Assembly: GCF_009834535.1 (NCBI RefSeq)
Contig: NC_045696.1
Span: forward strand, 60,204,001 to 60,268,000
Reading direction: 5' to 3'
DNA: 64,000 bases
Source: Camelus ferus
Taxonomy: Eukaryota
The position numbers and the translations under genes were made by a program. Positions 3,529 to 38,975 of this stretch are shown here, one piece after another. The notes beneath the pieces are model-generated. The model worked only from the letters and a program-made list of their open reading frames with translations. It was not told the DNA's origin and searched no databases. Numbering within the stretch: position 1 is the first letter of the stretch; each line of letters opens with the position of its first letter.

Positions 3529-4528
3529 AATAAAATCATGCCTACTCGTGGTCTAGTAAACTAAGAATATGGGCTGTTGGCACATTCGTCTACAGAATGA
3601 GTGACAAAGCTATCCTAAAATAAAGTATCGAGTGTTATTATTCCTGTTATGTCCTTTATCCCAGAATTTCTTTCAGCAATTTTGAGGGCGACTTCAATTC
3701 CTTAGGTCTCAATATAAGAGAATGTCAGTGAAAGTGATCTTAAGTGAATCCCAACTACTTTTCTTAAAGAACTGAATCAAGTGTGAAATGTGGCCTGTGC
3801 ACAGTCACCGCCACTCTGTACTTCAGGAGCGTAAACGTCAGCTAGGAGCAGCGGACCCCCGTCTATGTCCAGCCCAGACCCCGCTGTAGCGATGCTCGTC
3901 TAAAGGGCCCCAGGTTCTCCTGCATCCAGTCTGTCCTCACTGCAGCTTGACCTGATTTTCTTGATCAAACTGCTCTCCCGCTCTAAGGAAGGACTTGCTA
4001 GTTCCACGGTGGCTACTGATTAGAGTCTAAACTCTCAGGTTGACATCAAAACCCCAACAGTTTGGCCCCCACAACCTCTGCCGACTTGATCCCCTACTCT
4101 CCGCCAGCCTCTTTCTGTCCTCAGCCACGCTCACTTATACACTGTCCCTGGTAACCTCAGGCCCAGGCTGCCCAAGACCTTTGTTGAGGTGGTTCCCTCT
4201 GCCTGGATTCCTCCTCCCTCCTCACCTGCCAGTCAAAGTCTCCCCAGGAAGCACTCAGGAGGTTCTTCTCTTCTCCTCGGGCGTGGTCCCCCCCCCCCCG
4301 CCCCCACGCCTAATGTACTGATTAACACTCCACCGTCAGGCTACTGCGGAACGGGTTTATCTCCCCCAGGACCTCCAGCCCCTGGAGAGAGCTCTTGGCT
4401 TTCCTCCTGGCACGGGAGCGGAGAAGACGGCGGACTGAAGCTGAGGGCAAGGGGAGGGGACAGCCACCCTGCATGCCCACAGCTGTGCCCGCCCTGCCCA
4501 CACGGAGCTTGAGACTCTGCACACTTAC

Positions 4529-4566
4529 GGTTCCCACAGTTGAGACCACCAAGGCCGAACGGGCAA
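4529..4566 (-). CDS. HEG1: HEG1 exon 14 (38 bp)
   Basis: ttgcag|T TGC CCG TTC ... GGG AAC C|gtaagt; SCPFGLGGLNCGN. Confidence 0.96.
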
Positions 4567-23925: not shown

Positions 23926-25282
23926 CTGAGGCTGGAGATGGCGGTCCTGCGGGTGACTGGGTGTGGCTCTGAGTGGCGGAGGTGGTCAACTTAGGAGTCA
24001 CCACTTCTACCGTAGAAACGTGTGTGGTCTGAGGAGATGTTCTCAGGAAATATGAAGCTGGGCTATACTCTTCTGTAAGGCCAAGCTCTAGTGGTCAATT
24101 CTTCTGCTGATGTGGGGGCGATGGTTACGGGGACTGATCTGGTGGTAGCATCTATGAGCACCTGGCTCCTCTCTGTGGTGACAGCACCTTCAGTTGAGAC
24201 TTGTACCACAAGAATTTCGGGACTGGTTGGTAGGAACTGTTTTCCAACCACCGTCTGTACTGCTGTGTGGCCACCCATCTGAGCTGCTGTGCTTGATGTG
24301 GGGCTGGGGCTGGGCACTGGGGGATGAGAGGCCTGGAGAGTGGTGGCTGCCACAGCTGGAGACATTTGGGCTAAACTGGTGCTTGTGGCTGGAAGGGTTT
24401 GTTCATTGGAGGCCTCTGTTAAGGCCGGGGCCAAGGGGAGCCCCAGAGTAGACCTCACTGTGACAGCTTCCGTAGCCTCCATGGGCAGAGCCTCCAGGTG
24501 TGGTGGCTTTGATTCCGTAATGATTTTCTCGAGGTATGGGCTGCTCTGGTTCTTAGGCTCTGCTGTTTGACTACTGGGGAGCACTTCCATGGACGATGCC
24601 ACTGTCGACATCTGAACCGAAGTCACAGGAGCATCCCTGGCCCTAGGCAGGACCAGGGTAGAAGATGTAGGTGGAAGGACTGTTTGTGAGACAGACGGCG
24701 AAGAAGGGGTGGATGCTGTCAGGGATACTGGTGAAGAGGCTGGTAAGGAAGACACACGTGTGGGCGCATCAGGTGTGGACTGCTGTGGATGAGAGGAGGC
24801 CCTGGCTGCTGTCAAGGCTGATGGGAATGCGTGGTAGGACTGTGACACGGAGGGCTGGAGTCCAGGCAGCCCTGACGAAGAGGGTGATGGGTCAGGTTTA
24901 GCATAAGCGTCCAGAGGAACCAGCGTGTTCCGTGGTTCACTAACAGTGGCTGTGTAGGACAGAAGGTTGGTTGTGCGCAGAACCAGTGACTCAGTGGAAG
25001 GCTGAGCAGATTCCCCTTCGTGGGATGAGACGTGACTTCTTTCAGTCTGAGCCTGAGAAGAGGAAGAAGAATCTAAATGTGAAGAGTTTGAGATCTTAAC
25101 AGCAAAGGTCGAACTCTCCCTCAGGTCAGAGGATGAGCTGTTGTCTGCAATGGACAATAGCGTCCGTTCTCCTTTGGTGAATGTAGCTGAAACATAGGTG
25201 TGGTCGGTGTGGTCAGTGTGGTCGCTGGAAGTCCTGTGTTCAACATCTGTGCCTCCCACCTGATCGTAGCCAATTCCAGTGA
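23926..25282 (-). CDS. HEG1: HEG1 exon 6, large Ser/Thr/Pro-rich mucin-like exon (1357 bp as written; +1 frameshift near 24090)
   Basis: tttgcag|TC ACT GGA ATT ... GCC TCA G|gtagaa; ORF 24063-25331 (TGIGYDQVGGTDVEHRTSSDHTDH...), HEG1-like sequence resumes in another frame (ELGLTEEYSPASYFLRTSPQTT...PAS). Confidence 0.95.
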
Positions 25283-25967
25283 CTGCAAAGGGAAAACCTA
25301 AAGTTAGGTCAACTAAACAAATACCTGCCAAACCTGCACTATGAGACAGACTTTTAGTCTCCTATCCATGAACGCTTGGGGGTGAAATGCTTTCTTTGGA
25401 GAGGTGGCTTTCAAAAGTGAGCACGCTTAATAGAGACAGTATTGGAAGACAGGAAGGGTCTGGGTCTACAGTGAGTAGACCTGCCCTCCTGTGAGAAGCA
25501 CAGAGGCAGCAATGCAAACGGTAATAAAAGCAAAGTGGGGCCAGGGGCTGAAAAATAAGGAACAGGACCAAATTCCTTTCACATGCCTTTTCTGATAAAA
25601 GCAAATTAGTATCTGAAAAGCTCTTAAGACCTCAAATAGAACAATTGTTATGCCTAAATGGAAAAAGGAAAACCCTCCCAACTTTCCATTCTGGATAATG
25701 AGATATTTCTTTCCCAGGAGATTGGCCTTAGCCACAACGTGGCTGGGCCCCTTCACTGCCAGCATCCTGGCAGACAACACCGCAAACGCCTGGGGCAAGT
25801 GTGTGGGAGGATGTGCGGGGGCGGTGGGGGAGCCCAGAAAGCTCTCCTCACAGACAGCTTGGAAGGCTTACGACTTTCTGGGCTGAGGGAGAACGCAAAT
25901 CATTCTGGGGCTGCAAGCAAACAGACACATGAGCTGAGGGAATGCAGACAGAGATCCTGCCCGTCAC

Positions 25968-26456
25968 CTCCGAGGGCACGCGAGGCCGCCAGAGACCCAG
26001 AGGCTAGGTGGCCGTCACCGGTCGCGGTCACGTTTCCGGGCTGAGTGGCGCTCTCCGTCTCCCTGGGCGAGGTCGTCTCCCTGGGCGTGGTCTCCATGGG
26101 CGTGGTCTCCCTGGGCGAGGTCGTCTCCCTGGGCGTGGTCTCCCTGGGCGAGGTCTCCCTGGGCGAGGTCGTCTCCCTGGGCGTGGTCTGTCTGGGTGAG
26201 GTCTCCCTGGGCGAGGTCGTCTCCCTGGGCGTGGTCTCCCTGGGCGTGGTCGTCTCCCTGGGCGTGGTCTCCGCCGCCCAGCGCCACACATGCCCAGAAG
26301 CCGTGCTCCGGTTGGTGACAGATCGCAGCGTGCGCTCTCCGACTCCAGTGAGAGTGGCCCAAGTGTGCGGGCTGTGAGCGTGGGCTTCGGACGCCCCCTT
26401 CGAAGTCCAATCCTCTGCTTCGGGCCTGACTGCCAGCTCGGGACTGTCCTCAGTGG
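25968..26456 (-). CDS. HEG1: HEG1 additional/alternative exon 5b (489 bp, phase 1-1) with coding VNTR
   Basis: Pyrimidine tract ccccttctcaatcctcttgcag|CC ACT GAG GAC AGT, donor CTC GGA G|gtgacg; open for 163 codons: TEDSPELAVRPEAEDWTS...HTWATLTGVGERTLRSVT...(PRETT)n...GSLAASRALG; flanks resemble the insert of a longer human HEG1 isoform as I recall it. Confidence 0.85.
26057..26272 (-). repeat. Coding minisatellite, 15/18-bp units (plus strand gtctccctgggcgtg / gtctccctgggcgaggtc), about 13 copies
   Basis: Directly visible tandem array encoding PRETT/PRETS/PRETTS. Confidence 0.97.
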
Positions 26457-38686: not shown

Positions 38687-38975
38687 CTAAGGTGATGCTC
38701 TGGGAAGTCAGAGCTGTGGGTCTCTCAGCCCCAACAGGGGAAATGGTGAAATTTGTTGTCCTCGAAGAGTCATTTCTTCCTCTAGCAGCTGCTGTTTCAG
38801 TTTGTGGAGTGAAGTTTTCTGGAGCATCTGAAGAAGCGTGCCTCTTTCTGGGGGTCTGAACCATCACATCCCTCTTTGGAGACCACTGTTGAAAAGTCCA
38901 CTTGATTCTGATCAAAGGTTATGTTTTCTATGTGGGGTTCAGTGTTGCCTTCTGGCCAGTGGTTCCCTGCAGCAG
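38687..38975 (-). CDS. HEG1: HEG1 exon 2 (289 bp as written; contains a +1 frameshift near 38870)
   Basis: Acceptor atttcag|CT GCT GCA GGG AAC CAC TGG CCA GAA, donor TTA G|gtgagt; ...HWPEGNTEPHIENITFDQNQVDFSTVVSKE in one frame, VMVQTPRKRHASSDAPEN...ALTSQSITL in another. Confidence 0.93.

Follow-up and report, generated by a model that had tools for sequence, protein, structure and literature searches.

An extra base in the large mucin exon of HEG1 in a Camelus ferus assembly is almost certainly a consensus error

HEG1 exons in the window

The window, a 64-kb stretch of Camelus ferus DNA (64,000 nucleotides of assembly GCF_009834535.1), carries fourteen coding exons of HEG1, which are colinear from 38975 to 4529 and bounded by AG and GT in all cases (14/14; Table 1). 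Twelve of the fourteen exons are intact, and the remaining two each contain exactly one nucleotide too many (+1). The heart and the vessels require HEG1 in order to develop (PMC3461514, PMC4733052); according to the available part of PMC3461514, its loss disturbs the development of heart and vessels in zebrafish and mice, and its last two residues bind KRIT1.

The gene name, which a preliminary description had proposed from the letters of the DNA, proved to be right, as every named gene among the listed matches of a protein search was HEG1. This search used the frame that precedes the premature stop and returned proteins of 710-2025 residues (189 matches, the best 120 of which were analysed), so defined that truncated HEG1 products of fewer than 710 residues lay outside its reach. 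High identity, colinear exons and a long ectodomain rich in Ser and Thr, with EGF and calcium-binding EGF domains after it, identify the gene as the HEG1 orthologue. The profiles PF00008 and PF07645 scored above cut-off in the proteins P0001 and P0124, where they correspond to the two exons that follow the large one, while the large exon itself matched no family in the Pfam profile search.

Table 1. Positions of HEG1 exons and of the features of the frame break in the window
Feature	Positions	Strand	Description
Second exon of the gene	38975-38687	minus	289 nt, coding; apparent +1 at ~38869-38872
Upstream exon	37026-36727	minus	300 nt, intact
Upstream exon	31314-30961	minus	354 nt, intact
Upstream exon	29882-29529	minus	354 nt, intact
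Exon preceding the large one	26456-25968	minus	489 nt, in frame, with a coding tandem repeat inside
Large HEG1 exon	25282-23926	minus	Ser/Thr/Pro-rich, mucin-like, coding; AG acceptor and GT donor
Extra base	24090	minus	T (minus) or A (plus); omitted at full depth by the contigs of X1, X10 and X17
Displaced 54 codons	23927-24088	minus	match residues 425-478 of C. ferus P0001 at 100% identity
Premature TAG	24063-24065	minus	nine codons past the shift; 137 nt upstream of the donor
Exon after the large one	21852-21736	minus	117 nt, first EGF-like domain; joined in camel RNA
Second exon after the large one	21098-20979	minus	calcium-binding EGF domain, intact
Further downstream exons	17134-17031, 14322-14264, 14015-13855	minus	intact, fitting phases, stop-free
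Last downstream exons in the window	9834-9700, 4741-4699, 4566-4529	minus	intact, fitting phases, stop-free

The preliminary description had also held that the exons downstream of the large one are intact, which is true of all eight that fall within the window (8/8); the transmembrane and tail exons lie beyond it. Six queries for these exons gave no match in the 64-kb window (0 matches with 6/6 queries), and HEG1 exon 1 is likewise absent from it. The C-terminal DYF is present in 111 of the 120 listed homologues. The alternative last exons of alpaca models, which replace the transmembrane exon, match the window at 1413-1532 and 4344-4529 on the minus strand (P0002 residues 1209-1248, and a read-through beyond the donor at 4529 in P0124); they may stem from errors of the gene models or from soluble isoforms.

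The large exon had been numbered exon 6, which fits gene models that skip the 489-nt exon, such as that of a porpoise (P0008), whereas in camel RNA it is the seventh, the 489-nt exon being joined to it in two RNA runs (X15 and X17). Within the 489-nt exon, at 26057-26272 on the minus strand, units of 15 and 18 nt are repeated in tandem and in frame. Thirteen short Thr-Pro-Arg-Glu-like units are found here, where alpaca has 2 and two dolphins have 1 each, and by this comparison the mucin region has probably expanded in camel.

The frame break in the large mucin exon

An AG acceptor at 25284-25283 and a GT donor at 23925-23924 (minus strand) delimit the large exon, which measures 1357 nt (3n+1) in the window and one base less in the contigs described below. 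Read from the acceptor, the frame remains open for about 405 codons, ends in ...EELTTRAWPYRRV (also written ...SAEELTTRAWPYRRV) and is closed by a TAG at 24065-24063. From 24088 the same strand has a second open frame, ELGLTEEYSPASYFLRTSP...GPPSPAS, which reaches the donor (to 23927). A 1357-bp exon that is not a multiple of three, a break in its frame and a premature stop at 24063-24065 had all been noted before, and the window bears them out. Chance does not account for the frame break: each of the two frames gives matches of 96-100% to camelid HEG1.

The best matches, the C. ferus protein EPY73049.1 (P0001) and alpaca XP_031539527.1 (P0002), are 100% and 96% identical to the window over the exon, share its exon order and have EGF and calcium-binding EGF domains downstream. 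Each of them crosses the site in a single frame, while the window has one extra base: P0001 is 100% identical to 25283-24090 over 398 residues and to 24088-23927 over 54 residues, the two segments being offset by one base, and it reads SAEELTTELGLTEEYSPAS across 24090 without a break, as P0002 is also continuous. The shifted frame is the one in which all 120 listed homologues carry on. Exact register across 24090 is kept by 107 of them, and the shifted frame is the better one in all of these (107/107); the remaining 13 lack 6 or 7 residues at the site without a change of frame. The window's own tail after the shift gave a negative score against every listed homologue (120/120), although these sequences come from gene models, in some of which frameshifts may have been corrected. 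The motif cited as human in the preliminary description is present, with every letter the same, in a langur protein (P0101).

The surplus base, previously placed at 24089/24090, is assigned to 24090 by the contigs. Read on the minus strand, this base, a T, lies between C and A and duplicates neither neighbour; its position outside a homopolymer had been recognized from the sequence context, and a tandem repeat scan reported no repeat at 24090. Insertion by slippage copies a neighbouring base or falls within a repeat, and the T at 24090 does neither. In human populations, non-repetitive indels that leave copy count unchanged make up about one quarter of indels, and deletions are 8- to 10-fold commoner than insertions in that class, which leaves ~2.5% for insertions that copy no neighbour (PMC3638132, available part); a natural insertion of the form seen at 24090 would for this reason be uncommon.

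Two other accounts of the break were considered and rejected. Loss of two bases within the AG-AG context disagrees with the contigs, which omit exactly one base, and with the 107 of 120 homologues in matching register. Rescue by a cryptic donor finds no good candidate between 200 nt upstream and 30 nt downstream of 24090, where 15 GT sites agree with the donor consensus at no more than 4 of 7 positions, and the contigs show no joint inside the exon.

Four of 24 listed camel sequencing runs were aligned to the stretch and three of them cover 24090, namely DNA under two species labels (X1 and X10) and one spliced RNA contig (X17); in all three (3/3) the only contig of the run lacks the extra base. 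The DNA contigs of X1 (organism A, depth 12.6) and X10 (organism B, depth 23.4) each span 1801 bp, over which the absence of 24090 is the sole difference from the window, with zero substitutions. Both runs were flagged as near-identical to the window and either may be the source of its DNA; should one of them be the source, the extra base would be a plain error, and should neither be, X1 and X10 are other camels that lack it. The X17 contig (record 7, depth 49.9) extends over 23926-25284 with one gap, at 24090. Its loose end at the donor, 23926, is 117 letters long, and the 30 letters printed are those of the window at 21852-21823, the start of the EGF exon; at 25284 the loose ends of X15 and X17 match the window at 25970-25997, at the end of the preceding exon. 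X17 therefore contains the splice junctions on either side of the large exon, and a spliced camel mRNA with a 1356-nt exon exists. The second RNA run, X15, has the same upstream junction and a contig gap over 24090, and was counted neither way. All aligned runs are contigs, from which rare variants or alleles can drop; they speak to presence and not to absence or expression level. At 25308, an intronic position 26 nt upstream of the large exon, both RNA runs and neither DNA run have a G>A difference, most likely an ordinary polymorphism.

Sampled words extend the comparison to a wider set of runs. The stretch was found whole or in part in 20 of 24 listed runs from 9 studies, with few or no words in X20-X24, which were set aside. 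The top DNA rows (14/14, from 5 studies and under 2 species labels) share 0.97 of 188 sampled words, as X1 and X10 do, and this share is the highest among the 24 listed runs. The simplest reading is that the 12 top DNA rows beyond X1 and X10 miss the same words over 24090, because X1 and X10, with an equal share, differ from the window there alone; a share of 0.97 amounts to 5-6 words lost versus 3.3 expected for one base, which is compatible but inexact.

A second frame change upstream

A second apparent +1, absent from the preliminary description, lies in the 289-nt exon, which changes frame at ~38869-38872 through either a surplus A or one G of GGG. Read literally, the window stops the gene at 38799-38797, far ahead of 24090. 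Taken at face value, the window would thus not yield the secreted, mucin-only fragment suggested earlier, the frame having already ended at this upstream stop.

All proteins that align at the upstream site (101 of 124) are continuous across it, including P0124 of the alpaca cluster, which served as the query. The protein searches found no Camelus protein over 38869-38872. Seven short unnamed matches over the site all read through it; at 64-78% identity they would come from other mammals. The alpaca models P0002 and P0121 begin at a Met immediately after the site. The exon has no earlier in-frame Met, so a missing exon 1 may be all that this start reflects. The second +1 at ~38869 is probably an assembly error of the same kind; two exact +1 changes in a set of 14 exons that are clean in other respects accord with a consensus prone to error. 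If the +1 at 38869 were true, the signal peptide would be out of frame and HEG1 would restart at the Met just downstream.

Error, private allele or gene decay

Other camel DNA, spliced camel RNA and camelid proteins all lack the base at 24090, and we infer that the sequenced animal itself lacks it too. With high confidence we attribute 24090 to an insertion error in the assembly consensus, with HEG1 spliced and read normally through the exon. Assemblies can keep stray inserted bases, and long-read consensus retains insertions that were not corrected; at 24090 a stray read-level insertion may have been left uncorrected and kept in the consensus. The camel HEG1 mRNA would then contain a 1356-nt exon that continues in frame (...EELTTELGLTEEYSPAS...) into the EGF exons. 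The preliminary description had judged a consensus error most likely and had named reads or other assemblies without the base as the check; the three covering runs (3/3) and the two camelid proteins lack it and support that judgement. The break at 24090 is thus almost certainly not a real feature, and camel HEG1 is almost certainly ordinary.

Were the base real, it would be a rare loss-of-function allele, likely single-copy and private to the sequenced camel, that was chosen into the consensus. Contigs can drop alleles, and X1 and X10 may or may not come from the source animal, which gives this explanation some room, as does the position of 24090 outside a homopolymer, since consensus errors are commonest in homopolymers. 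The stop in such an mRNA, 137 nt before the junction, would satisfy the established 50-55 nt junction rule and lead to nonsense-mediated decay. Any protein made would have no EGF domains, no membrane anchor and no tail for KRIT1 to bind, and the C-terminal Tyr-Phe is required for KRIT1 binding (PMC3461514, available part). Against a private allele stand the missing base in all covering runs, the fact that none of the listed runs contains all sampled words, the rarity of natural insertions that duplicate nothing, and the second +1 in HEG1, which is simpler as a second error than as a second mutation; together these make it very unlikely. Put in terms of the animal, there is a slim chance that the sequenced camel carries a rare HEG1 null haplotype, a recessive cardiovascular load allele unseen in other camels, and the boldest form of this improbable reading would have the +1 at 38869 be real as well and shared by Old World camels. 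A natural null of a heart and vessel gene would, in that small fraction of outcomes, be useful to camel conservation genetics.

That HEG1 is decaying or recoded in camels, with a fixed or common frameshift and a pseudogene or a secreted mucin-only product as the outcome, is scarcely credible. Two frame breaks within one gene in the window speak for such decay, together with the want of a Camelus protein spanning the upstream site among those found and the alpaca models that start just past it; but at 24090 it is refuted by two DNA runs, the spliced RNA contig and the C. ferus protein, and the 12 intact exons of 14 and the continuity of P0124 and the other aligning proteins at the upstream site weigh against it elsewhere. 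The available portion of a comparison of all camelid species gives HEG1 as a one-to-one orthologue, and the 14 genes that it calls inactivated throughout Old World camels do not include HEG1 (PMC12127551, Table S6), although the 58 candidates of its Figure S7 may include HEG1; the main text of that paper, as far as available, does not mention the gene. Among the papers listed by a literature search on HEG1 and camel, none concerned camel HEG1, judged by titles and the openings of abstracts. Because HEG1 loss disturbs heart and vessel development, a fixed null is unlikely, and a real one would be important.

An assembly consensus error at 24090 carries a caution, in that the assembly would contain at least one and probably two false HEG1 frameshifts. 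Single-base gene 'losses' called from assembly GCF_009834535.1 therefore need read support. The case resembles spurious assembly frameshifts (NCBI-'corrected'; PMC12127551 and PMC12007338, available parts), which also consist of a one-base indel in an intact, conserved and spliced gene and, as here, are missing from independent DNA and RNA; unlike typical examples, 24090 lies outside a homopolymer. True camel-wide frameshifts, such as those of TAS2R16 and PLA2G2F (PMC12127551, available part), likewise fall in a camel coding exon. A fixed inactivation is marked by the same lesion elsewhere, and the base at 24090 is carried by none of the three covering runs (0/3) and by neither of the two camelid proteins (0/2).
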